From assembly GCA_000708835.1 (NCBI GenBank), contig DF237676.1, positions 1 through 39,989 on the forward strand: DNA of 39,989 nucleotides, written 5' to 3'. The number at the start of each line of letters is the position of its first letter. The stretch's first letter is position 1. Position numbers and translations under genes: made by a program. Source of the stretch: Klebsormidium nitens (lineage: Eukaryota; Plantae; Klebsormidiophyceae). Positions 4,230 through 33,600 of the stretch are shown here, one piece after another. Under the pieces are notes generated by a model. That model did not search any database. It was not told the origin of the DNA and saw nothing but the letters and a program-made list of their open reading frames with translations.

Positions 4230-4973
4230 TCACCTCACTGCATGAAGCTCAGCCCCCTCGACATCCAATGAGATAAAGTCTATCCTTGAGACGCCGTGCT
4301 CTCTCAGAACGGCGTCTAGTTGCCTGCACCTCACGGTGATTGTCTCTGAGCTGTTTGCTCCGAGTTGCACCATGTGTGCATCCTGATCTGAAGCACCAAC
4401 AACAAAGCCAACGTCTACATTGTCCTTTACATGCACGCAATGAGGAACAAGCGTACAAGAGCGATTTGTAAACAGCAGAGCCTTATCTGGATTTGGCTCC
4501 CAGCACAAACCCCCCCACCCCAAGCACTTGTCGAAGAAAAGCGTGTTTGAATGGGCGAACGCATCATTCGCACCAATGTCGATGTAGAATCCTTCACCAA
4601 AAGGAATGTGCAAGAAAAAATTATGGTACAGGAACCAGTCTTGATAGATTTGCGAGAAGGACTTTGGCTTTCCTGTAAAAATGCTTCTACAGTGCTCCTG
4701 AAACTCTGGGTCCACTTTCAACAGTATAGCCTCAATCTCCTTCAGTAATGGCCCGCTCTTCAATTGTGGTCGTACACGGGGGTCAGTGCTGAAAGAATAC
4801 CCCAAGAATCTGTCCTGTGCCGTTGAGTCAGTGTCAACACCAGCCACTGTCGAAATGTGGTGGTCCCTCCAATGAAGCTGAAGAGCAGCGGAGTAGATGA
4901 AAATGATTAGAATGCCAATAGAGGCCCCCAGCAGCTGCCTGCGACCTACTCTAATCTCCATCTCGCAAGTCAT
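4230..4973 (-). CDS. FkbM-family (Methyltransf_21) SAM-dependent methyltransferase with N-terminal membrane anchor; 3' end unresolved
   Basis: Motifs FSQIYQDWFLY, FYIDIGANDAFAHSNTLFFDKCLGWGGLCWEPNP and IDFISLDVEGAE, plus a hydrophobic segment LLGASIGILIIFIYSAAL. ATG at 4973 or 4961. The ORF stops just after DVEGAE, at a tandem GTGAG donor-like site. Confidence 0.85.
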   Translation of the reverse strand: MTCEMEIRVGRRQLLGASIGILIIFIYSAALQLHWRDHHISTVAGVDTDSTAQDRFLGYSFSTDPRVRPQLKSGPLLKEIEAILLKVDPEFQEHCRSIFTGKPKSFSQIYQDWFLYHNFFLHIPFGEGFYIDIGANDAFAHSNTLFFDKCLGWGGLCWEPNPDKALLFTNRSCTLVPHCVHVKDNVDVGFVVGASDQDAHMVQLGANSSETITVRCRQLDAVLREHGVSRIDFISLDVEGAELHAVR

Positions 4974-5356
4974 GGATTGACCGTTTGGAAAGCAGGCTTG
5001 TTTGTCCGCGCACCATTGCTTCGACGCGGGCCCCGGGCTTCGCCGAGGGGTCTTCGTAGTAGGTATTAGGTATCGGAGGGCTGACTCGAGCTACAGCTCT
5101 AGCAAATTTCCTCGGGGTCAGGTGGGTGCGGCACTGCCACCATGCACTGCACACATTCAACCACCATATCTCAGTATCTGACGACGTTTGCTGGTATTAT
5201 TGAAGGGGCGTTCAATCTCAGGGTGCACCTGAGAAAGCCAAACGGGTGGAATAGCGACAGTTCTTCTTTGGTTCAGCATACCGCAACTTAGGTCTTTGAT
5301 TGCGGGGTGGTGCAAAATTGTGAAGACTATCGCCTCAGGGTCGCCGCGTCGCCAGC

Positions 5357-8379: not shown

Positions 8380-13292
<4,913 letters not shown>

Positions 13293-13303
13293 TGTCCCTC
13301 AAG

Positions 13304-13665
13304 CTGCAGAAAAGCCCGCTCTGAAAGAATCTATACCAAGAAACCAAACAACAGCGGATGGACTTTCTGAAAATTTCCAATGCGCCTGTCCCTCAAGAAT
13401 CCTTCAGGCTCAGCTAACTTCCAAGCTTTGCTGATGTCAATGCTTTGACGTGCATATGCATTTCCTGCAAACGTGACCGTGACGATCAGTTTTCCTAGCT
13501 CCGAAGTGGGTCCACCAACTGAAGAATTGCGAATTCTCGACGTTCGCAGTTAGTCGAGAATTACGGTTCTCTGCTAACGAGAACCTAACCCTGTTTCGCC
13601 GCTTTTAAAGCCGCGTCATCGCGACATCATCTTTTTCAATCTGTCGCTCAGCAAGCGCAACTTAC
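13304..13665 (-). promoter_or_regulatory. Putative 5'-UTR intron of KARI
   Basis: An acceptor ttttctgcag lies 11 nt upstream of the ATG. A consensus donor gtaagt sits at 13665 on the minus strand. Confidence 0.5.
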
Positions 13666-13841
13666 ACCCGGGTCAATAAGTTTTGTACCTGAGGTTTTTC
13701 ACGATTGCAAGTAGGATACCTTTTGGAGTGGCGGTTTATAAAATTTAAAAATTCTTAGGCTTCAATTATCCTATTAGTGTGCCCGGCTGAAGTAAGATAT
13801 CTGAAAAGTTGCGAAATTGCTGCCTGAGCTGTCCGTCCTGG

Positions 13842-14026
13842 CCATCCAGCGGGATCTGTAGATGGACTCTGTACTTGATGGACAGCAAGCTGTCTATGTA
13901 GACCGCAATTTGCGGGCGCGAATTCACCATATCGGGATTTTTGAGAACTCGGGGACTGCTGTCCGAGCCGTCCATGCCGTCCATCCAGCGGAATTTGTAG
14001 GCGAACTCTGCACTTGATGGACAGCA
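13842..14026. repeat. 46-bp imperfect direct repeat pair
   Basis: 13842-13887 and 13981-14026 match at 40/46 positions; all six differences are transitions. Confidence 0.85.
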
Positions 14027-14650
14027 CTGCCGTCCAGAAGCGCGCGTTTTGAGGAGCGGATGGGGGGACACAAGCATTCACAGATTCAGCAAGTAGGAAA
14101 TGTTCCAGCTGGTTTCTTCGTTGGCACATATCCTGAGCGGGTAGCGGCTTCCATGTGCGTGATGCCTCCTGCTGTAGACTGACAGAGCTAAAAGTGGGCG
14201 GGCTTTAGAGGAGTTGCAGGGCAGATTGGTGTGGCTTAGGGTTTCCAGCTTAGTTGGCAAACAATCTGGGCAGGAACTGGCATTCTGGACGCTGTGGTGG
14301 CGCACTCTAAAGCGTTCCTGAGAATGCTGTGGACCAGGTAAGTAGCTACCTGGTTGCGTCTACATGCACTCGTAGTGTAGAACAATGTGTCAGGCAGAGG
14401 TTGGCCCAGCCGCTTCTGGACCAGCTTGAAGAATGCAACTGAGCAACTCAGTCTGAAGGAGGTGGACGTGGTTTTAGGGGTTGTTGCGCTGATTTCTCAT
14501 GAGTGCGCACTGATGGGAGTTGCATACGCAGTAAAGGTGCAAACATGTCAGAACTGCGCATCCAGATGTTTGTTGAGACAAACTAGTATTCAATCCTTTA
14601 TGACTCTGGTCTTGTAGGGGCAGGAAAGCTGGTCCTTGAACCGTCTCGTC

Positions 14651-17600
14651 ATGGCTAGAGGCCGGCCTCATGGCCGGTCCAAGTCCGATCACCGGGTCTG
14701 TCAGGCAGCTCGACATGCACGTGCTGCTGAGTACAGAGAGAGGATTGCCATCAGCGCTGAGCAGCAGGAGGCGCGCATCGCTGCTGTGAACGCTGAGTGC
14801 GATCTTCAAGATGCCCCTCAGAAACGAAGAAGCCAGAAGTCCAGTGGTCGGAAGAAAGAGGCATGGACTGCTGGTGCGTCAGCACAGCGTGGGTCTTGCA
14901 AAGCATCTGGGAGTGGAAAGAAAAAGGCAAGTCAGTACCTTGGGGAAGCGCTTGGCAAAGCTACAGAAAGAGGTGAGTTTCTGGTGCATGTGCTTCTAGG
15001 TGGAGGGTTTTGACTTGTCAAGCAGGGGCCAGGCAGAAGCTGGGACGCGTTGCGCTGCAACTTTCGCGTTTATCAGAAAAGTGAAAGGCAGTATGTACTA
15101 AGAAGAGCGTCTTCTTTGTGATGCGCAAATTGCGGTACAGCGTGCGGCTGGCTCGTAACTCTGCCAAGGTTAGTATGGGCTCAGTTTGAAAAGGTTGCCC
15201 CCAGGCCTCCCTTTGCACCAGGAACAATGTGCTTCATCCATAAGTATAATGACTGCTGGCCCTGCAGGGACGTACCACACTTTGCCTCTGCCTCTTTCGA
15301 AGATAAGAGGCGCATTCCCTGTACATGCTGTCAGTAAAGAGCTAAGCAATCTCAGCGAGTACGGCCGTCCTTGCAATGTACCAAGATCAGCCTCTTTCTC
15401 GAGCACGCACCAGGTATTGCATGCATCTCCGAGTTTAGACTCCAGAACCAACCTCTGCCCTTCTTCACTGCAGACTTGCACAGCTTTCATTGCCACGCGT
15501 GCGGCGCTACTGCAGAGTTTGGGTTGAGGGGAAGCAAGGAGGGGGGCATCGTCAAGTACTCGTGCAGAGCGCACTCCACGTCCAATGGTTGCTTTCGAGT
15601 GGACCGAGACCGCGCAGGTGAGAGCAGCCGGGGAGCCTGCTGTTGACATGGTCTGAACTTCATGCAACGCTCATAGCTGCCCTCCCATTGATACAATGAT
15701 CCTTTGAGAAAGACCTCGAGAAATTTACGTGCTCTGTATGCTCTTGCAGATTGGGCAGAGGACCAAGAGCTGCGCCGCTTGAGAGCAGAGGAGAGAAGAT
15801 TGGAAGAGGAGCTGCGAAAGCTGGGAGGGACCTCGTTCGCAGCGGAACCAGCGGCAGGTGAGCGTTCCAGGCGCGATCTGACACCATGGATTGTGCTCTT
15901 ATACTCAATCTGGGGCAGCAAGTTCCCTGTCATGCCTCGAATGCGTTGTGGCTCTTTCTGCTGTGCATTGGACACATGGATCAATAGTGACTGCAAGTCA
16001 ACGCTTCACTGTTCTCGCCTGCAGCTTGGAAAGGATTCCAAAGTAAGGGGGTTTGGGCTTCGGCACCCATGAGCCAATCGCTCATAGGTAAGGCACTTCG
16101 ATAGCAGCTCTGGATCTGCAGTTCGCTCGTGAAGCAGGTGGCCTTCCTCTGAACATGCGAAAATGTAAAGCACTTGGGCTTCTACGACGTTTCTGACATG
16201 TTTTGTTTGGAAATTGCTGGCTGCTTGTGGATAAGGGCAGCGTCGCACATGCAGCATCTGAATGTGGTGTCCTCCCATGCAGCAATGCTACTCACTATCG
16301 GCGGAGTCGAACGCAACCCGGGCCCTACTTCAAAGGAGGTGAGCCTGGACAAGAGGACCTGCCTCCTGCAGTTCAGGGTCCAGCACCAATTGTACTCGAG
16401 CATTAAGGAGCAACTGTGTGATTTTTCTCAGTGTCCATGTTATCGAGAGCGGGTTATACATTGTTGTGCTGATCTTTGCTGTCTCGCTACTACAGGAGAA
16501 AGAGCTGGCTTTGAAGACGAGCTGGCAGGAAGTAGATCCTGAGATTGACTCCGACCTGCTGGACCACCTGGCAAAGCAGCAGCTCACCTTGGAACGCTGG
16601 AGAGGGATGACCGATGACGGCCGCTCTAAGCTTCTTGACCGACTTGAACGCAGGTATCCAGGGCCAGGGAACTGGTTGTTGGGCTGGACTGCGATCTTCG
16701 ATAAAGCTGCGGGTAAGCAGCTCCCTCTATTAGACGAGTAGGGTCGCTTCGATGCAATCCGCTTGGAGTCAATCCGCTTGGAGTCAGGCCTATAGAGGTT
16801 TTCAAGCAGTACGGATAAGGGAACCTTCTGGTGTTGTTCGCCAGCATGTGGGACCGGAAAGCTGGAAGAGGATGGCACGCCAGGGGCCTTTGCTGATTGG
16901 AAGGTCGCTCTTTGGTATTTCTGCTGATGTGATTGTAGTTTGTCCTTGTTTGGTATCAACCCTGCTCACAAGCCGATTTCCTCATCAAGCAGTGCCTTTC
17001 ATTGTTGCGAAGTCTGAACAGGTGCTTCATAGTCTTCTTAATCTGCAATCTGTGGGCTGCTTGTAGCATTTGAGGCTGTTACTTGGTAGGCTTGGTCTCC
17101 AAGTGCAGCGTCAAATGAATTTTTCAGTCATAAAGTTGGTTCCTTAGAGGGGATACATATAAGTTAACCTACACTCAAAAACATGTAGCTAGATGGAAGC
17201 TCGGATAGTATGCTGTTTCTGGAACAAGCTCAACCAGACCAAAAGCTTGATGCGCTGCAGGGGTTCCATCCGGCCATGCTAAAACCAGCTTCAAACGTTC
17301 CACATGCCTTGATACATCAGACATCGGGGTTCTTGCGAAGGGTCTGGTGAAGAAAAGGAGATTGGAGCTTGAGCAAGCAGGAGAAGCGCAAAAGGGCCTC
17401 TTCGAGATTGGTTGGAGCATCCTGCCGCGGGCAAAACCTTTGGGTGTCAAGGATCTACGTTTTCTAGTGCTGAAGGCAGAGCAGAAACTCGGAGTTGCGG
17501 TGATGGGGCGCTCCCATTTCAAGGCTCTAGTAGATCGTGCAGTCGCGCTTATGGAGGGAAAGCTGCCGGGCANNNNNNNNNNNNNNNNNNNNNNNNNNNN

Positions 17601-19161
17601 NNNNNNNNNNNNNNNNNNNNNNNNNNNNNNNNNNNNNNNNNNNNNNNNNNNNNNNNNNNNNNNNNNNNNNNNNNNNNNNNNNNNNNNNNNNNNNNNNNNN
17701 NNNNNNNNNNNNNNNNNNNNNNNNNNNNNNNNNNNNNNNNNNNNNNNNNNNNNNNNNNNNNNNNNNNNNNNNNNNNNNNNNNNNNNNNNNNNNNNNNNNN
17801 NNNNNNNNNNNNNNNNNNNNNNNNNNNNNNNNNNNNNNNNNNNNNNNNNNNNNNNNNNNNNNNNNNNNNNNNNNNNNNNNNNNNNNNNNNNNNNNNNNNN
17901 NNNNNNNNNNNNNNNNNNTTGGGAAGCCTGGGAGAGATTCTTGGAGTGCAAGAGGGTGGTGCAGATCACCAAGGGTTTGAAACGCATCTACGATCGGGTG
18001 AAGGCGAGAGGGGGAGACGATGTGAAAGAGTGGATAGACCAGATGAAAAAGATGGTTTACACAGACTCGTTTGTGGAGTTCAGCCTCACCAACTGGAACG
18101 ACATTGACTTACGGCATGTAGCGGTAGAGGGGAACAAAGTCCGGCCAGCGTACCCGCTAGTACGAGAAGCGATCGCCCACTTTGTGGAGCAGGTTCAAGG
18201 TCGGGCTGTCTTTTACAGTGACCAAGCAGTCTGGGCCGCTTTGTCCCAGGAGCTTGCGGGGGAGCGGGTACCGGCGGTAGCTGGACTGCTGACGGAGCGC
18301 TGCGCCATCGGCGCAATCATTGATGGTCAGGGCTACAAGGCAGTGCTAAAGATGGAGAAGTCGGAGCAAGTCAAACTGGTGTTCTTCGACCGGAATGCAG
18401 AGGCCTCTGCTGTGCTGACCGAACAAGAGGACTTCCGGAAGAGCGGACTTGAAACACGGATTGCTTGCTTCGTGCCTCGGACGCCGTTCTACCCTGCCAT
18501 GGATATGGCCATCGTGGTGTTCAAGAAGCCGAAGAACCAGCAAGGTGATTATCCAAATCCGCGAGCTGCTTGTGATCGCCTTAACTTGCTATCGTTGACC
18601 AGCAGGTGTTACCACCAAGGCTGCGACCGACATCCGAGATGTTGCTAGTTTGTTATGAACTGTCTGTAGGAACCGCGAACTTTCAAGCAGCTTCGTGACT
18701 ACTTACCCAACGTCCTCGATGAGTTGCTGATTGTCAAGACGTGCGGATGCAGTGGTTGCAATCCCAAGGTTGTGTAAAAAGATGGGCTAAATTTGATCCA
18801 ATCTCATCTATGCCGTTTTGCAGGGTTTGTGGAGCGGCTCACGAAAGTTCAAATGACACTGGAGTCAGCGCACGACCATCGTCGCTCGACCCAGACCGCA
18901 ATGCATATTGGCAACGTGAAGCCGTGGCTGGGTGGTGCAGAGCTAGAATCCGTGGACGTGGATTTCTGCTACATCGTGCCGGGTGCTCTTGTCAAGGGCA
19001 GGATTTCACGGCATACCGAGCCAGTAGAGGCAAAGTTGGGGACCACACGGGGACAAGCCGGATCTGTACAAATTGTTGCGCATACTCACATAGAGTTAGC
19101 TTTTGGCCAGCTAGATGGAAAGCTAGGACAGGTGGATAGGTGGCAGCGGGGGGGAAAATAG
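14651..19161 (+). CDS. Crinkler/RHS-like multi-domain effector gene: Zn-finger-like, coiled coil, 2A-like motif, SAM-like, (gap), restriction-endonuclease-fold domain
   Basis: Phase-compatible exon chain 14651-14972, 15474-15617, 15750-15857, 16283-16338, 16496-16712, 17261-18544 (contains the N gap) and 18824-19161. The C-terminus CFVPRTPFYPAMDMAIVVF...FVERLTKVQMTLESAHD...VDFCYIVP fits the P..FPA.D / Q.T...H / F..VVP pattern of Crinkler/RHS nuclease domains. The 18545 donor (gtgatt) is weak and extra micro-exons are possible. Confidence 0.6.
16283..16338 (+). other. Exon encoding a 2A/StopGo-like motif (MLLTIGGVERNPGP-TSKE)
   Basis: catgcag|ca atg cta ctc act atc ggc gga gtc gaa cgc aac ccg ggc cct act tca aag gag|gtgagc. 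It matches LLTCGDVEENPGP of T2A at 10/13 positions, with Gly in place of the usual Asp. Confidence 0.7.
17573..17918. other. Assembly gap (346 N)
   Basis: Run of N inside the long exon of the Crinkler-like gene. Confidence 1.
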
Positions 19162-19819
19162 TTGTACTAGCGAGAGCCGTCAAGCTGCCTTGATTTCAAT
19201 ATGCACGCTCTTGTGTATCCACTTTACTATCTGATCGCAGCCCTGATGCTCCCCACCTTGTGAGCAATTTCGGAGGACAATCTGCTACAGATTCTCCTTG
19301 CATCAAATCAGCGGCGAGTTTTGATTCATTGAAAGTGTCGCTTTTCATGCAATCCAAAGCACGTACTTAGATCACCATGGCATCGTTGCCAACCACATCA
19401 TGCACATGGTATCGATATCCGAGTGAGTGTGCCTCCGCGCGCCCAAGCGGCCATTGCAGAGCAAGAAGGCTGGGTGCATATTTTAATCAAGCAATGATGG
19501 CAAGAGGCCAGTTAGCGCGACCTTACATGGGGCCTCCTGGGCGCACCCCTTTTCGCAAAGGCTATATGCCATAATTGGGTGATATTGTAGCCTCGCGTTC
19601 AGACCCGTAGCGGGTTGTCCAGGCAACCGCGCGGGACGGAAGGGGGGGTAACGTGGCGCAAGGAGATTGGCGATATTTTATGCCGGATTTCAGATGGTTA
19701 GTTGTCCGAAGTTCGAGCTTGAAGTTGAAGTCACTTGAGACTCGAAGTTTGATAAATTAAGCGAATGAAAATCGTCGAAAGGCTGCCAAAGTTCTCGACT
19801 TGCAGTCTTGGCAGACATA

Positions 19820-20145
19820 CAGCATTTTCAGGGCATGCTTCCCGATCTAGATAGGGTGTATTTAGCCTAAACTTAGGCTAAATTTAGTGTAAGTTTAGTC
19901 ACATCACCAGATTAATTGACGTCATCTAAGAAAGTGACTGTAACACGTGGAAGAATATAGCGCGTCGGATGGAACTTGTCCGGTGGTTCTACGGCTCGAT
20001 GATCACCCCTGTTCTACTTTGGCGGTTGCTACTGCGGAAAGATGTTCGATGACGTCAAAGCAATAGCTAAAGTTTAGCTAAAATTTAGTATCTAAACAGA
20101 CCCTATCTATCGATCGCAACCGGGAAGCATGCCCTGAAAATGCTG
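19820..20145. mobile_element. MITE-like foldback element with 25-bp perfect terminal inverted repeats and TA flanks
   Basis: cagcattttcagggcatgcttcccg (19820-19844) and its exact reverse complement (20121-20145), with TA at 19818-19819 and 20146-20147. No coding capacity. Confidence 0.8.
19854..20103. mobile_element. Inner Tourist/PIF-like MITE nested in the foldback
   Basis: Termini gggtgtatttag ... ctaaacagaccc (10/12 inverted match) resemble GGGxxxGTTTAG Tourist ends. TA lies on both sides, with subterminal ctaaa/tttag repeats and an inverted ttgacgtcatc pair. Confidence 0.55.
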
Positions 20146-21048
20146 TAAAGAAGATCTGTACCGTCCAGGATTGCAAAAACGTTGACAATTTGTCGAGAGT
20201 GTGCATGGCGCGCGCCGGGAGCCTGCTGGCTATCAGGATCATCTACATGCTAGCACGCTACTTAAGGTGTAGGATATACAGACGGTCCGCTATTCCTATT
20301 CCTAAGCGCACTGAGTGCACTGCAGGCAGGCTCGTTCATTGGGTGCAAGATATCTCGTTAAACGCGTCCATGACCTGTTATCATTCTCAACAAGCTTAAT
20401 CATTCGTCTCCTTCCGGTCGCGCCTGCCCATTTTGCTTGATGCACGAGTCATGAGAAATTGCAGGTTGTGTGGGCCGCCTTTGCTTCCGCAACGAATGTC
20501 ATAAATCAATTACAACTAGTCTGTCGACGTTCAACACATTGTGCGCGTTTGGCTTGGGATCACGTGCGTATACATATCCAACTCATGTTCAATGCATGCT
20601 CCTTTTTCCCCACTGGTATTAAAACGCTCTCAACTGAACCTCCACGTGTCGCCTAGACATCGAACTGGTAATTGAATAGACCTAGTAGGAGGGCTGTGTT
20701 TGAAGAAGAAGCAACAAAGCCCTACGTGATTTACACTAGTCAGCTGTGCGACTTCTGTGCGACTGTGTCCCTGCCTGCTCTGTTAAGGCCAGGTACACAA
20801 TACCATGGAGCATGGCTTGCTGGCCCTGACTAATTCAAGACCAGGGAATGCTGTGCGACTAAACAGTTCCACGTTACTCCTGATTAAACGGTCTACTTAC
20901 ATCGAATCCTTTGAATCACTCAATGGTCTCCCCACGTGCTTGCTAAACAAGATACGGAAGCCTTAAGAGCCCATCGCCAGTCTACACAGTCACGGACCAC
21001 AAACATCAGGTATATATCAATGTGGAAAAACTCGAACATGTCCGCTAA

Positions 21049-23381: not shown

Positions 23382-24118
23382 TCCTCGAACATACCAAGAG
23401 AGATTCCCTTCATCTACTAGTACTACCCCATTTCATCCGCACTTTGGCCTCACTTTGGGGTGTTCTTCCTCTCGGGCGCACAATGACTCTGAGCTGTTGA
23501 ACACGCTACCTTTCATAGATATCAGACCGGATCCACGAAGAACACGCCATCGACTCTAGAGCCTAGAGGCGTTTCCATCGTAATGTCAGACCCTCCTTTT
23601 CACAGTGTTCAGCCATCACCGAATCCCGACGCCATGATGGATTTGAGGCAACCGCCATTCGCCGTCGGTACCGTAATCTTTTTGCACAAACTTCTCCACG
23701 ACAAACCGCCGTCGTTCGCAATCGGAAACTCAGAGTCTCTAAGTATGTGCCACGTGTATGCTTTGCGACCATCGTACGGTAATTTGGCCGTTCCATCATC
23801 CACTTGGCGCCATCTGGCCCATCTCCCCTTCACCTTCACCGTGACGTTCAACTCGGATACCTACCTACCGGTATCATGATTCAGTCACGCCTGCTGGGCC
23901 CGGGGGCACGTTCGCCGCACAGGGATGTTGAACCGGGAATTATTTCCTACCTAGCAATGGACTATTGTACCCGGCGCGCTAGCCTGCCGGTCGGGTGACA
24001 TCACTGGCCGGGCGGGTCACCTGACCACTCCAGTACGCCGGGTGAAGCCTGGCATGCAACCGATCTTCCTCCTCATTTCAATCGCTCTCGCGAAAGATCT
24101 ACCGGTATTCGAATTTCG

Positions 24119-26415
24119 ATGCTCTCTGGCACCATGTATGCAATCAGGATATCTGCCATTGGCATAGGCTACATGAGTTGCTCTTTAGATTTAGGTTTAG
24201 AAATCAGAGCGATTGGTGGCTTGGTTTGTGGCGCCGCAACCTTTCGTCCTTGCGATTCGATGACTTCCTCGTCCACATTGCGGCTTGTTCACCAGGGGGG
24301 TCCTTTAGCCGCAGCCGCTGTTGCGGTCGGCTTTGGGTGCTCGGATGTTGGGTCCAAGAAGAATGCTGTGTTGCTCCACAGTCCCTCGCTGGCGGAGGCA
24401 GGGCCAGTGAGGGTCAGATTAAGCAACGAGGATCCAGGGGGGGGCAGGGAGGTGCGGTCATGGGGATGCAGGCAGGGCTTGTCCACTTCAGGCGCGGGCC
24501 CCAGCAATCACATCGGCATAGAAAGCGCATCTCAGGGGCTCAGAGGCCCTGCGCTGAACGGGGCGACCGGCCATCTTCAGCATTCGCTGCCCCTTTGGCA
24601 GAACAGGCTGCCGTCCTTCCATGATCTCAAGCCAGGGCCCATCACCCTCCCGTTTCCCAGCAGGCCTGTGCTGTCCTTTGCAAGCGGCAGCGCGGAGAGT
24701 CATGCTCCCAGGCCTGCCGTGGAGCCATGGATCTCGGACCAGAGGAGGGTTGTATCCCACCAGGAAGCATCCACGTCCGGCAGTCTCCCTGGCCTGGCAC
24801 CCGGCTCTGGCTCCCAGTCCCCCATCTTCTCCTTTCACTCCTGGCATGTCCCAGACCCCGGCAGCTTCTCGGCTGCGGACGGGGGCGTCCCGAGCGCGGG
24901 CAGCCCCCCGAAACCGCCCCTGGTGGTGGTGCTTCTGGGGTGGCTGGGGTCCAAGCAGAAGCATTTGAAGAAGTACGCGGACTGGTACACGCAGCAGGGC
25001 ATCCACTGTGTGACGTTCACCATCCCCATGGCGAGTGTACTCAGTGTGGGCAAGGGCGGCAGGGCGGAGGCGCACATCGACGAGCTGGTGGAGGAGATCA
25101 AGCACTGGGTAGTGGAGATCAACGCGGGCGCGGGCGCGGGGGAGGAGCACGCGCTCATGTTCCACACGTTCAGCAACACGGGCTGGCTCATGTACGGCGC
25201 GGTGCTGGAGAAGCTGCACAAAGAGGGCAGCCCGCTGCTGACCAAGATCCGTGGCTGTGTCGTGGACTCTGCGCCGGTGGTGGACCCAGACCCGCAGGTC
25301 AGGCGCCTAGACTCTCAATGCCAGTTGGCATATGACTGTGATGAACATGCATCACGCAGGACTGTCTGCCACGTCCGATTGACTTGCTACACTTTCGTCA
25401 ATGGGAGTACATGGAATAAGTCCAGGTCTGGTGGCGCACCGTTCACGTTCTGGTCGAAAACCTAGAACCTGTGGGTTAAGGGGCGGGGCTTGATGTCTTG
25501 TTAAGAATCAGTGAGAGGGCTGCTGAGCACTTGGGCAGCACTCAGTTTTGGTCTGCGGCTTGAAGATGACGGGGCTGAGACAGCTTTCAATGGTCAAAAC
25601 GTCGGTGTTCCGTTTCAAACATGTGGAACAAAAATGTCTCGTGGAAGTGGCGCCAGCCCTGAGCCAGCTTCCAAATCCTACTGCCGACAAATTCTGGTCC
25701 CTGTCAATGGCAAAGTCGCTCCGGTGTATCAGACTGTGTATATATCCACGTGTGTTTGGTCTCATAGATGCACAGCTTTAGACCATCTTGGTGAACCAGA
25801 CACGACAGCTGGTCCTGGTATATCTGGCCAGCTGTAGTTGTAACTTGAAAGAGGGTTTCCTTTGGGCTCATGTCGTCCAGGATTGTCCTTCAGGTGTGGG
25901 CCTCTGGCTTTGCGGCTGCCCTCTTGGGCAAGCGCAGCAGCGCCGTCCGCTACGACGACCCCGCCCCCCGCAAGCTGCCGGAGCAGCCCGCAGAGGCCCC
26001 CGAGCCCCTTCCGCGACCGCAAGCGCCCGCAAACCTGAGAGAAGCGTTCCTGCACTCGGCCCTGGAGAAGTTCTTCTCGGTGTTCCTGCAACTGCCGATC
26101 ATCCGCAAGCGCCTGGCGGAGGTGACAACCGTTCTGGCGGAGAAGCAGCCGGCCAGCCCCCAGCTGTACATCTACAGCAGCGCGGACAAGGTGATCCCCG
26201 CGCACTACGTGGAGACGTTCATTGAGGCGCAGAAGCAGCAGGGCCGCAGCGTGACGGCCAAAAACATGGAGCATTCGCCGCATGTGGACCACTTCCGCGC
26301 CAACCCCGCCGTGTACACGCAGCACCTGCGCGACTTCCTCAACAAGTGCGTGCCGCATGTGGCGGCAGCGGGGCACGCGGGACGAGGGCAGGGGACGCCA
26401 GTCGCTGAGGCGTAG
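24119..26415 (+). CDS. TMEM53: TMEM53 / DUF829 alpha/beta-hydrolase-fold protein
   Basis: Exon 1 runs to 25297 (cag|gtcagg) and exon 2 is 25894-26415, phase 0. Motifs VVVLLGWLGSKQKHLKKYADWY, FHTFSNTGW, GCVVDSAP, QLYIYSSADKVIP and SPHVDHFRANP. True ATG uncertain (24119, 24134, 24173 or 24260). Confidence 0.92.
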
Positions 26416-30600: not shown

Positions 30601-33600
30601 CTGCGTCGTCTGCCTGCCCCCACGTCACCTCGCCCAGCTTGGCGGCGCGAGCGCGCACCAGCGACTCCTCCGCCATCTTGGCCTCCTGCAACCACAGCAT
30701 ATGTCAGCGCACGAAACGGAGGCGAGAGCAGGCGGATAGGAGCATACGAGCATATGGCACTGCAGATTCTAATCCGAGCTCCTTGCCACATCCCCAAGAG
30801 TGTCCTGCACAACGCTGCAGGGGACCAAACATGGGTGCTGCAGGACAGTAGGCCCTCAGCTGTCCAACTTGATGCACCCTGACTGCCGTCCGGCATTCAG
30901 TCAATGACCCTTAGGAAGTCGCTTACCTGGGCAGCCTCGAGGCGCTTGAGCTGTTGCTTCTCTGCGCGTGAGAGGCCCTCCTCGGGCATCAGCTCGGCGG
31001 GGCCCTGGAAGACGTAAAGCCGGCTGGACTGCCCGAACTTGAGCACGTCGCCCACATGCACGGGAACGTACACACGCGCCTTCACCTGCGGCCCCAGCCA
31101 GCAGCAAGGGTCTCAGGTACAGGCATGGAGAGGCTGAGCGTGGATGGAGCGCCTGGCTTGAGTTCTCCGAATTGGAGCTCAAACCCAGACTGACTCGGCG
31201 CTACTCAGCGCTTTTCGAATCCACAAAGGCCGCCTGATGTAATTCGGATCACAGGACGAAACAGTCTGCGACCCAAGGAACGTACAACCGCAGCCGCGTG
31301 CTGGATCTGTCCAACAGATGGCCAGCCTGCTAGCATTTTTTTTGCATTTTCCAGACTCTGTTGTCAGTGGAGATTATGGGATCAAAATCAGGCTGAGGCT
31401 CGACTCTCCGGAACCAGAACCAGAATTCGAGCATGGATATACATATGATGGAGTCTCCGAACTAAGCCCGGTTGAGCTCTGCTTTGGAGGATCCGACTGG
31501 TCAGCTTTGTCTTTGCTGGCGGTGTCCTTCGGCCCCTCCCCCCGTCCCCTCACCTGCTTCTTATTGACGAAGGTCCCGTGCGTGCTGCCCAGGTCGAACA
31601 GCGCGGCCTCCCCCCCCTCCTTGAACTGCAGCACCGCGTGGTAGCGCGACACGGTGGCGTGCTCCAGCGGGAAGTCGGCGCGCTCGCTGCGCCCAAACAT
31701 GTAGGCGCCCTTGCGCGACACGTCCAGCTGCGCAAGCACCGCGCCCTCCTTGACCACTTCCAGCGCATACGGCTGCCCCGGGGGGGCGCTCCATGCCGGG
31801 ATCTCATACGGGGGCTGCCCGCTGGGGGCCTTGCTGACGCGAGGGGCGTCAGCCTTTGACGCGGGCACGGCCGGCTCTTTGTACATGGCCGCCGGGAACA
31901 AGGCCCGCAGCGCCGGCTCGAGCGTCTTCTGGGCTGCAGTGTCGGGGCCTGTCTCCGGTGCCACGTTCGAGGCCACGGGAGATGCGGCGGCGGCGCAAGC
32001 GGCATTGGCAAATGGGGTGCCTCCGGGCTCGTCCTGGTTGGGCGCCTGGCGGTCCTCCATCTCCTGCCCCACCAGCACTGCCGCAATCTCGTGCACAGAG
32101 TCCTCTTCGAAAGCCCGAGCGTCCGCCCCGCTTGCTGTGGCCACCGGCACCCCCGCTCCTCCTTGTTGCTCACCCTCCTTGAGAGCAGGCTCAGCGACCT
32201 CGCCCCCTCCTTCCCCCGCCCGCATTGTCGCTGCCTCTGCCTGTGGCCGCTGTGCCCCTGGTGCCGGAGCTCTTGCGGCGGAGGGGGGCCGCTGCTGTGG
32301 CACCTTGAACCCCCCTCCTGGCCGAGGGACCCCGCTCGGTCTCGACCCACCCGGGGGGGGCATGTCCGGCCGGCTTCGCGGGGGGCCCATCAGGCTGGCC
32401 TTGTTACTGGAGTGCTGCCGCACAACGGGATGAGCAGGCCGCGGCGACAGCGAGGCCGCCCCTCCTGGCTCCCCCGCACTTTCTGCCGCGGCACCCCGCA
32501 GCTCCCCGACCACGTTGCTGGCCACCCTTTCCAGCACCTCGCCGCCGTCCCGCGTCCGCTCCCCCTGCTGCTGAGATCCAGACAGAACACCGCTCTCCGC
32601 ACTTTGTATCGGCCGGGCGCCCTCACCATCCCCCGGCGCTCTGTTCAGCACGTTGCGGCTGCCTGGCCCCGTGCCCCTCACCCCACTGGTCGCACTGCGC
32701 ACCACCGCAGGCGGCTCCTTGAACCCGTGCGCCTTGCTGCTGCTCACTCGGTCCCCGTCCTGGCGCATCGCGCTGCCCGTGCTCTGCCCCGCCGCGAGTG
32801 CCTCCCCGCGGCTGTTCACCGCGGTCATTGCGCTGCTCACGGGGCCGGGGCTGGGGGTGCGGAAGCGGCCCACGCTGCTGGCGTCGCTCACGGCGGGGGC
32901 CTGCGCCGCTCCGATGATGCTGCTGGCGTCGCTGGCCTGCTTGGCCAGGCTGGACTCCTCGGGGGCCTCGTCTTGGCCACTGCGCGACGGGCGCGCTGTC
33001 GAGAGGCGGTCCTGGTGCAGAAAGAAGGCTTGAGTGAGGGAGCGACCAGAGAAGGGCACCTTTGCGATACTTCGATGGACAAATAGTCGTTAGTGAAGTC
33101 CTGAATGACAAGGCGTGACCCAGCGAAGGGCACAAGCAGTTTGAAATGTCCCAGCCAACCGCCCTGCTAAAGCGCCAAGATCTCGCAAAAGGTACCTAGA
33201 ATTTCCTCCAGTGAGACTCTGACAGGCAAGACTGAGGGACTGTCTCGACTCCTGTTTATATTCGGTCGCAATGTGACAATGACTGAAGGCTGCCAGCTTC
33301 CTTTGCCTAACCGCGCCTCACCTGCGCTTGCTCGTTTGTGTGCCCTGTTGACGAAGACGCGGCAGCCGCCAGCGCCAGGTCCGACGAGTTGTGCGCCACA
33401 CGGGACTCCCCAGACAGGCTCGCCTCCGCACGGCCCGGCGCCCCCTCCACTACACTGACGGGGGGCAGAGACAGCCGCTTGGGCTGGCGGGGGGGCGGGG
33501 GCAGCATAGCGCCAACTCGGTTGGGGCCCGCTTCTGGGCGCCCCCGGTGGGCAGAGCTCGACGCCCTCGATCCCTCGTGGCGCTTCTTGTCACTGGAGCT

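Follow-up and report, generated by a model that had tools for sequence, protein, structure and literature searches.

KFL_007270050 of Klebsormidium nitens is best explained, with about an even chance of being right, as a fusion of a zinc-finger leader, a 2A-type peptide and a predicted Crinkler/RHS-like NTPase-nuclease, in which the leader is likely an expression adaptor that probably came from the replicase gene of a mobile element. The evidence comes from the splicing of the gene, from a family of Klebsormidium genes with the same leader, and from a published screen of ribosome skipping.

Structure and Transcription of the Gene

The window (the whole stretch of DNA analysed, 39,989 nt of contig DF237676.1 in assembly GCA_000708835.1) carries the gene on its forward strand, and assembled contigs compared with it establish a real spliced gene with eight coding exons. 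The RNA status of the sequencing runs was inferred from spliced joints, none of which occurs in the DNA run. The preliminary description had joined seven exons in phase, and all seven do have GT-AG ends and join in frame, but an eighth at 16025–16087 was missed: every joint of the seven-exon model was seen in RNA contigs except 15857^16283, in whose place the contigs hold 15857^16025 and 16087^16283, via an extra 63-nt exon (runs X8 and X10). Both joints of this exon were also found in X8, X12 and X20 (four runs looked at), and one 163-nt contig carries the two together, with 0 differences in its listed pieces. Co-transcription of the exons upstream of 16496 with the nuclease side, which the preliminary description presupposed, is borne out by spliced joints in RNA contigs; these form a chain of junctions, no single contig at this locus spanning leader to nuclease.

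The transcript begins with a 5′ untranslated exon at 14040–14337 (start approximate), which holds five short upstream ORFs and was recovered as contig pieces 14040–14335 (X8) and 14094–14335 (X13), with a joint to 14618. The start-codon exon (14618–14972, ATG at 14651) encodes the basic N-terminal 107 aa of the leader; its joint 14972^15474 occurs in three of three RNA runs, and paralogs share the same Met. The upstream start (14060) and first intron of the public model were not seen in the RNA contigs, and tblastn found no relic exon in intron 1. Three phase 1-1 exons follow, all with joints in RNA contigs: 15474–15617 with a zinc-finger-like CxxC-x21-CxxH motif, 15750–15857 with a charged helical or coiled-coil segment (weak coiled-coil Pfam matches), and the extra exon 16025–16087, which supplies the upstream half of the 2A helix and is present in public model P0001. 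The 2A-like exon itself lies at 16283–16338.

The Leader and Its 2A-Like Peptide

With the extra exon the leader measures 226 aa, and the earlier figure of about 205 aa corresponds to the model lacking it (205 aa). Its character was correctly described at the outset as zinc-finger-like and coiled-coil, ending at NPG: CxxC-x21-CxxH, the coiled coil and GGVERNPGP are all present. The four ligands of the zinc-finger-like motif fit a pattern in 30 collected proteins, and no Pfam family matched it. A likeness of the motif to EsV-1-7 repeats had no Pfam support and was dropped. An Atlas search with the leader and the helical domain gave no usable match.

GGVERNPGP is the sole ExNPG in six frames of the window, against a chance expectation of 0.0005 for such cores (the DNA pattern has a mean of 0.03 in shuffles), and in the spliced model it lies in frame within one ORF. 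Identified by motif search and family register, the core G-V-E-R-N-P-G-P (16303–16326, predicted skip between 16323 and 16324) fits the StopGo/2A pattern (D/G/C/N)(V/I)ExNPGP of PMC12846837. The splicing-in of exon 16025–16087 completes a hydrophobic, Leu-rich helix that spans roughly −19 to −10.

A Family with One Leader and Many Cargoes

The leader tipped with G(G/C)(V/I)ExNPG(P/W) is a family cassette, found in 37 proteins of which 35 are named Klebsormidium (31 K. nitens and 4 K. subtile by name); family searches returned 60 matches in one case and 18 in another. Behind the upstream-helix anchor, [VIL][ED]xNPG stands in register for 28 of 29 distinct anchors, a count that is not fully blind, since the anchor was written after motif-bearing sequences had been seen and the rows are kin. 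Cores match those validated in PMC12846837 for 24 of the 29 anchors, and where D..NPGP is not kept, the change is mostly to G or C at position 12 and to W at position 19, which are active variants (PMC12846837). After NPG the proteins diverge sharply, no residue in any column from +5 on occurring more than 8 times in 30. The differences at the end of a paralog read are synonymous at the motif's L, G, G and E. Conservation that has a structural cause or reflects only recent duplication, and is unrelated to recoding, is the least probable reading of these patterns and one to which we give almost no credence: many leaders are 65–78% identical, so some of the conservation is kinship, but the core is held even in leaders 31–45% identical, the variation tracks validated StopGo variants, and five family peptides skipped in a screen (2026 preprint).

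The cargo of the family comprises five unrelated NTPase-nuclease types, which have only a helical domain and linker in common, and primase/helicase replicases. AAA/STAND-type matches were obtained in P0003, P0007, P0009, P0065 and P0072, and in the primase/helicase relatives the leader is followed by PF09250/PF08706 or by PF02399 (P0039, P0063 and P0076 for PF02399, above cut-off; P0067, P0070 and P0071 for PF09250). A search for the motif upstream of Crinkler-like domains, as initially proposed, does find the cassette at the head of nuclease genes, but it heads primase/helicase genes too and is not nuclease-specific. APE and reverse transcriptase Pfam domains were absent from P0001, P0003 and 44 family proteins scanned. 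Judged from sequence, leader kinship ignores cargo. The window's leader is 78% identical to that of P0069 and 69% to that of P0003, though P0003 has the same cargo; in a leader tree that is rooted only at its midpoint, has stars on 8 of 26 branches and does not fix the replicase-to-nuclease direction, the leaders of P0072 and P0074 group at 100/100 despite unrelated cargo.

Ribosome Skipping in the Family

Nine exact family 20-mers have been screened in human cells (2026 preprint): five skipped, one fell off (P0007, 'Falloff Only') and three did not skip. The three 'Nonskipping Only' peptides are those of P0006, P0068 and this gene, whose coding 60-mer is the same in the library and whose green score of 3.02 is comparable to the non-skipping controls near 3 (2026 preprint). 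The classes were assigned by an SVM to 20-mers sorted as a pool in HEK293T; on the data used to train the SVM its accuracy was 86%, and the authors request individual confirmation (2026 preprint). Skipping labels were given to 5 of 9 family peptides versus 721 of 3993 overall, a weak difference (p 0.013). C-type or NPGW-type family peptides were not found among the scored rows. The 2A-like release first proposed therefore has a divided outcome: the register is conserved in 28 of 29 anchors and five relatives skipped, but the 20-mer of this gene did not, and this copy probably skips weakly.

It may be that the site is dead or nearly so in this copy, the product being a single protein of ~1030 aa whose leader simply adds one more Crinkler/RHS-type header, for nuclear targeting or DNA binding, and whose motif is inherited baggage. 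We consider this rather unlikely, while by no means negligible. The score of the exact 20-mer speaks for it, inactive 2A-like motifs are described as common in retrotransposons in PMC3708506, and PMC5289972 has Crinkler/RHS (CR) proteins taking on varied headers. The limits of the SVM class just given weigh on the other side, as do a family-like peptide that differs by two residues and scored skipping (2026 preprint), the intact core, and the splicing-in of the helix exon.

The fall-off class raises another possibility, namely that the freed leader is a co-translated antidote or chaperone restraining the nuclease, with skipping plus fall-off yielding antidote excess. The upstream product can exceed the downstream one at 2A sites, according to PMC3708506, and the P0007 peptide scored fall-off. 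Nevertheless, one leader for five unrelated nuclease cargo types and for replicases is a poor fit for a specific inhibitor, and this reading is very improbable.

The Downstream Product

The cargo likely runs from a small Trp-rich helical domain through an NTPase to a likely REase-fold domain, and is Crinkler/RHS-like as judged by features and motifs. The helical domain (16496–16712) is common to the NTPase-nuclease class of the family by alignment and cross-matches. It had been called SAM-like, a label that found no Pfam or PDB-profile match, and the fold model was unusable. LEAFY contains a SAM domain. LEAFY/FLORICAULA is listed as the top structural match for a relative, region unstated (2026 preprint table). 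Alignment to P0003 (KFL_002940140) places a linker at 17261–17572, with a basic KKRR cluster at 17350–17361 (possible nuclear signal) and the strand preceding the NTPase P-loop.

The next segment (17573–17918) is an assembly gap of 346 N, into which contig ends continue in four of four runs. In the alignment to P0003 the gap hides most of the predicted P-loop NTPase, Walker A/B included, a domain overlooked in the preliminary description. It holds 116 codons against 307 aa at the same place in the paralog, and the downstream product is therefore expected to have about 810 aa; the ~600 aa first given agrees with the 617 aa that result when the 346 N are read as the true length of the gap, and only then. 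In P0003 a Walker A motif is present, and residues 430–545 gave a NACHT match of E 1.6e-5, just under cut-off. A word-seeded search for NTPase relatives returned P0003 alone.

Behind the gap, 17919–18544 encodes a helical/winged-helix-like region together with the N-terminal half of the likely REase domain (Glu 18295, Asp 18502; alignment A3 and motif table), and the last exon (18824–19161; joint 18544^18824 in X8 and X10) carries the QxT...H motif (Gln 18850) and the stop codon. The Asp is kept in 8 of 8 group-A rows covering the site, and the Glu and Q/H are kept; we take E..D..QxT..H to be a CR-type motif. Atlas features of the C-terminal part score 0.90–0.97 overall, with 0.97 to unnamed Mucoromycota clusters and 0.92 to a cluster with 88% PF20147 (185/256 features). 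PF20147, the Ubl/LFLAK header, had no match on the exons, P0001 or P0003.

The original Crinkler/RHS assignment is thus likely on features and motifs but not on fold, the REase having no confirmation from Pfam, PDB-sequence or fold searches. The A3 fold is confident only for residues 130–320 (pLDDT 70–90) and has low pLDDT past residue 325; Foldseek against pdb and viral sets returned nothing at E 0.001 for this model, and its best VIA match, 3h92, is weak (Z 6.5, under the tool's trust level). A single-sequence fold of P0003 (pLDDT 36) was discarded, and alignments A1 and A4, being ragged, were set aside. PDB sequence and profile searches were empty, PADLOC matches reached E 0.01–0.02 only, and PHROGs gave one weak match. 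Sequence-level matches were confined to Klebsormidium-named or nameless records, and a profile comparison gave no significant similarity to the Crinkler-like cargo of P0065.

Relation to Mobile Elements and Known Systems

The replicase P0063 (KFL_002940130) and the nuclease P0003 have neighbouring locus tags on the same contig (113,040 nt), each with the leader. This arrangement would suit a gene that still functions, or did until recently, as part of an undescribed self-replicating DNA element, one leader-2A gene giving the primase-helicase and the second an NTPase-REase as integrase/transposase or addiction toxin. P0009 weakly matches a family of phage transposition proteins (E 2e-4), PMC5289972 links CR NTPase-REases with transposons, and K. 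nitens has giant-virus-like genes (PMC5294986). At this locus, however, the window shows no recognisable replicase gene, terminal repeats around the gene were not found within 13300–21000, and DNA depth is that of single-copy sequence in introns and flanks alike (about 20–35), with no multicopy flanks. Scans of viral contigs, which reach close relatives only, gave no locus related to P0006, P0063 or P0071. We judge this alternative unlikely. One metagenome scan match (L001) was a false positive, a bacterial purine-synthesis locus.

The peptide resembles class A StopGo/2A of the G(V/I)ExNPGP type (PMC12846837; PMC12338488) in its core octapeptide, the G/C at position 12, the occasional W at position 19 and the Leu-rich upstream helix, but it is intron-split and tips a conserved zinc-finger leader of dozens of nuclear genes, and this copy scored non-skipping. 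In APE-type non-LTR retrotransposons (L1Tc, Ingi, CR1, L2, Crack; also Haematococcus) a 2A likewise stands near the N-terminus of ORF2p, before the nuclease/replication module of a selfish element, and dosage control has been proposed for it; here APE and reverse transcriptase are replaced by a STAND-type NTPase with likely REase, or by primase/helicase, in intron-rich genes. In NLR/death-domain genes of sea urchins and other marine animals, which are likewise cellular, a 2A-like peptide stands before a STAND-type NTPase, as predicted here. Their 2A lies at the N-terminus and serves as a signal as well, whereas in the present gene a 200-aa leader comes before it and nuclease-type cargo after it. 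With CR NTPase + HTH + REase proteins (PMC5289972) the gene shares a variable header, a predicted P-loop NTPase, helical region, header-cargo shuffling and occurrence in a free-living plant lineage; it differs in lacking the Ubl/LFLAK header, in having two stacked headers with a 2A site between, and in a leader common to replicases. Finally, the PF09250/PF08706 or PF02399 of leader-bearing relatives recall replicases of polinton-like viruses, virophages and giant viruses (Prim-Pol + D5/SF3; UL9-like helicase), although the window encodes none and capsid and element ends are not shown. NPGP or ribosome skipping was not found in the papers searched on these replicases.

Concluding Remarks

In the expression-adaptor reading that we prefer, the leader would let captured cargo be made from its promoter and be partly freed by ribosome skipping. 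Translation would yield the 226-aa leader on its own, the cargo on its own (about 810 aa, with a Pro start) and uncleaved fusion, this copy leaning to the fusion, and skipping plus fall-off may keep the nuclease dose low. Symmetric phase-1 exons would allow cargo swaps via intron recombination. Because basic clusters occur in both halves and a secretion signal was not seen, the cargo would act on DNA in the alga's own cell, in defence against invading DNA or in a selfish function.

The combination was first thought undescribed. The cassette system was indeed not found in print, in coverage lying outside the Zhang 2016 supplements, the PNAS datasets and bioRxiv 2026.09.24.754024, but K. nitens 2A peptides already appear, without remark, in two survey supplements. 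The role of 2A peptides in cellular genes is an open question (2026 preprint). The family offers a natural series in one culturable alga, with a single leader, 2A variants of graded behaviour (skipping, fall-off, non-skipping) and no fewer than 7 cargo types, which makes models of dosage, release and gene capture directly testable. It ties StopGo recoding to Crinkler-type nucleases and DNA replicases, a link that was not found in print. As a bolder picture, held only tentatively, Klebsormidium may harbour an undescribed family of intron-rich primase-helicase DNA elements whose StopGo-tipped leader became a universal gene-capture adaptor for a polymorphic arsenal of Crinkler-type nucleases, each freed during translation with a skipping efficiency tuned per copy, so that viral-style polyprotein logic would have been domesticated as a eukaryotic conflict system. 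The family also suggests that an alga related to land plants carries mobile elements of a hitherto unrecognised family.

Gene Structure and Genomic Context

A protein search identified the gene at 14651-19161 of the 39,989-nt contig as Klebsormidium nitens KFL_007270050 (protein P0001). Contigs from one DNA run and six runs that we guess to be RNA were mapped onto the window, in two sets sharing run X8. The RNA-type contigs contained the spliced joints 14337^14618, 14972^15474, 15617^15750, 15857^16025, 16087^16283, 16338^16496, 16712^17261 and 18544^18824, none of which was present in contigs of the DNA run. The preliminary description had proposed seven in-phase exons with mostly consensus splice sites and a ~205-aa leader, the zinc-finger/coiled-coil part ending at the NPG of a 2A-like (StopGo) peptide. 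All of its exons have GT-AG ends and the leader does end there, but RNA-type contigs add an exon at 16025-16087, giving eight coding exons in an open frame and a leader of 226 aa up to the Gly. One 163-nt contig, in three of the four runs of the second set, holds both joints flanking the added exon, and the direct joint 15857^16283 needed by the seven-exon model was absent among the joints of RNA-type contigs. The joint 16338^16496 (short side 24-37 nt), found in two of three RNA-type runs of the first set and all four of the second, links the upstream exons to the nuclease side at 16496. A paralogous contig from run X11 carries the coiled-coil and 2A exons together; no whole-gene contig was found among the mapped RNA-type contigs. 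Each of leader exons 2-4 is phase 1-1, as is the unit made up of the 2A exon and the exon that follows it.

Across the exons (14651-19161), DNA depth is several-fold above that of the introns and RNA depth far above that of locus-specific junctions; close paralogs therefore exist and supply most reads. Intron contigs occur in RNA-type runs at 14973-15473 (depth 33-120), where retention would end the frame at 120 aa, and at 16713-17260 (depth 18-40), while the introns flanking the 2A exon have zero contig coverage there. The spliced 5' UTR (14040-14650) holds five upstream ATGs, all out of frame (6-40 codons); the 51-aa N-terminal extension of the public model is not supported.

The head-to-head neighbour (10600-13300, minus strand) is, judging by its translation, presumably a ketol-acid reductoisomerase-like gene. 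By eye, we take other genes in the window to encode an FkbM-like methyltransferase (4230-5090, minus), an alpha/beta hydrolase-like protein (24000-26400, plus) and an FHA-domain protein (31374-33089, minus). Just upstream of KFL_007270050, an AT-rich segment (13663-13768, 36% GC) with loose ends on both sides and a DNA depth of ~17,000 versus ~25 nearby is likely an organellar DNA insert. Directly before the apparent transcript start lies a 70-nt direct repeat (13818-13887 and 13957-14026, 81% identical), which could be part of the leader family's promoter. A MITE-like element at 19818-20147 has perfect inverted repeats of 27 nt, an inner inverted repeat pair of 18 nt, and short tandem copies inside. 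No element ends were found around the gene and its flanks are single-copy, so an intact mobile element is unsupported at this locus.

The Assembly Gap and the Cargo

The flanks of the N run align to the paralog P0003 (KFL_002940140) at residues 1-427 (62%) and 735-1052 (79%), which places 307 aa where the assembly has 346 N and the public model an intron. The downstream product is thus likely ~810 aa by this alignment, superseding a ~600-aa estimate that had trusted the gap size. At the gap position, P0003 contains a Walker A motif and matches NACHT (E 1.6e-5, 25.3 bits versus a cut-off of 26.7). The C-terminal part looks Crinkler-like, with a likely REase (restriction-endonuclease-fold) domain. 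In the feature-based Atlas comparison, whose scores are uncalibrated for protein parts, P0003 405-1055 scored 0.97 against unnamed Mucoromycota clusters. Its score was 0.92 for a cluster in which 88% carry Crinkler N-terminal domains, and 0.90 for an archaeal ATPase cluster (10% Hjc). Homologs as distant as 25% identity keep the cargo's Glu, Asp, QxT and His, which we read, from Crinkler/RHS motifs, as a likely REase site; fold searches with the cargo model did not confirm the REase fold. NTPase + HTH + REase is the commonest Crinkler/RHS architecture, also in free-living organisms (PMC5289972). The small Trp-rich helical domain after the 2A site (16496-16712) is conserved among relatives in the alignment and is a putative SAM domain.

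The Leader-2A Family

A phmmer search with P0001 gave 60 matches, and a leader profile retrieved 18 longer proteins out of 7,998 candidates. The 2A-like motif occurs in 37 of 79 collected proteins, including 31 named K. nitens and four K. subtile transcripts, and alignments diverge after it. Two cargo classes emerge from predicted gene models and Trinity transcripts, the latter possibly chimeric via the shared leader. The first has the helical domain (missing or replaced in P0066, P0069 and P0073), a linker, and an NTPase cargo from five groups mutually unalignable in the enzyme part: P0001/P0003; P0007/64/66/72/73; P0065; P0009/68/69; and P0074. The second has a long acidic spacer, inside which several gene models end, and a replicase-type domain: UL9-like helicase (PF02399; P0039, P0063, P0076), Prim-Pol with D5-type helicase (P0067, P0070, P0071) or, by eye, primase-like motifs (P0033, P0075). 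In a tree of 29 leaders, picked for known cargo and without a fixed root, nuclease-class leaders group together (2 changes versus 9.8 shuffled) irrespective of cargo group.

The replicase P0063 (KFL_002940130) and the nuclease P0003 have adjacent locus tags and both carry the leader; the pair is a candidate intact element. In P0004 the unit of coiled coil, 2A and helical domain is duplicated in tandem, and P0009 and P0068 each have two helical domains, separated in P0009 by a decayed 2A-like stretch.

Activity of the 2A-Like Junction

The StopGo core is given as (D/G/C/N)(V/I)ExNPGP, with G as frequent as D and W in the last place rare but active (PMC12846837). Anchoring on the upstream helix put [VIL][ED]xNPG in register in 28 of 29 distinct anchors, the sole miss resembling a mis-spliced model, and 24 of 29 match that source's validated set; an alternative count, 25/30, is circular, its rows having been chosen for the motif. 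The 2A-like core (16303-16326 in KFL_007270050) is conserved in register across the family.

A preprint (10.64898/2026.06.17.732966; PMC13405545) screened 20-mers in HEK293T cells. Nine are identical to stretches of the family proteins collected here: five skipping (P0004, P0023, P0034, P0065/P0077, P0072), one fall-off (P0007) and three non-skipping (P0001, P0006, P0068). Compared with 721 of 3,993 skipping overall, five of nine gives p 0.013, which is weak because the library includes deviant motifs and the nine peptides are kin. The coding 60-mer of KFL_007270050 itself is classed as non-skipping, which raises a serious, if rather improbable, rival: that this copy gives mainly fused product. 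Skipping was also scored for three other family-like peptides, whose origin is unverified; one differs from the KFL_007270050 peptide at two residues. The classes are machine calls for which the authors want individual confirmation, and upstream context affects 2A outcome (PMC3708506). The supplement also classes as skipping a second, unrelated 2A-like K. nitens peptide, from GAQ92643.1, ahead of an Ndc10-like domain.

Conclusions

The gene, with its leader, 2A-like motif and predicted nuclease, is real. The literature describes 2A-like peptides ahead of STAND-type NTPases in cellular genes (PMC11512398), a Crinkler-like gene as a selfish element (PMC12957317) and giant-virus-like genes in K. 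nitens (PMC5294986). Supplementary tables of Rao 2025 (PMC12338488; activity N/A) and PMC13405545 contain peptides of K. nitens (one, in the latter, curated as 'AAA+ ATPase domain-containing'); the main texts of both leave Klebsormidium unnamed. Among the literature matches listed, none links 2A with Crinkler-type or primase-helicase genes; Zhang et al. 2016 may describe these headers.

We consider it an evenly balanced proposition that introns allow cargo to be captured by a promoter-leader-2A unit, which probably derives from a primase-helicase element. The unit's 2A peptide would release the cargo with an N-terminus close to the native one. The efficiency of this release would vary by copy and hold the nuclease dose down.
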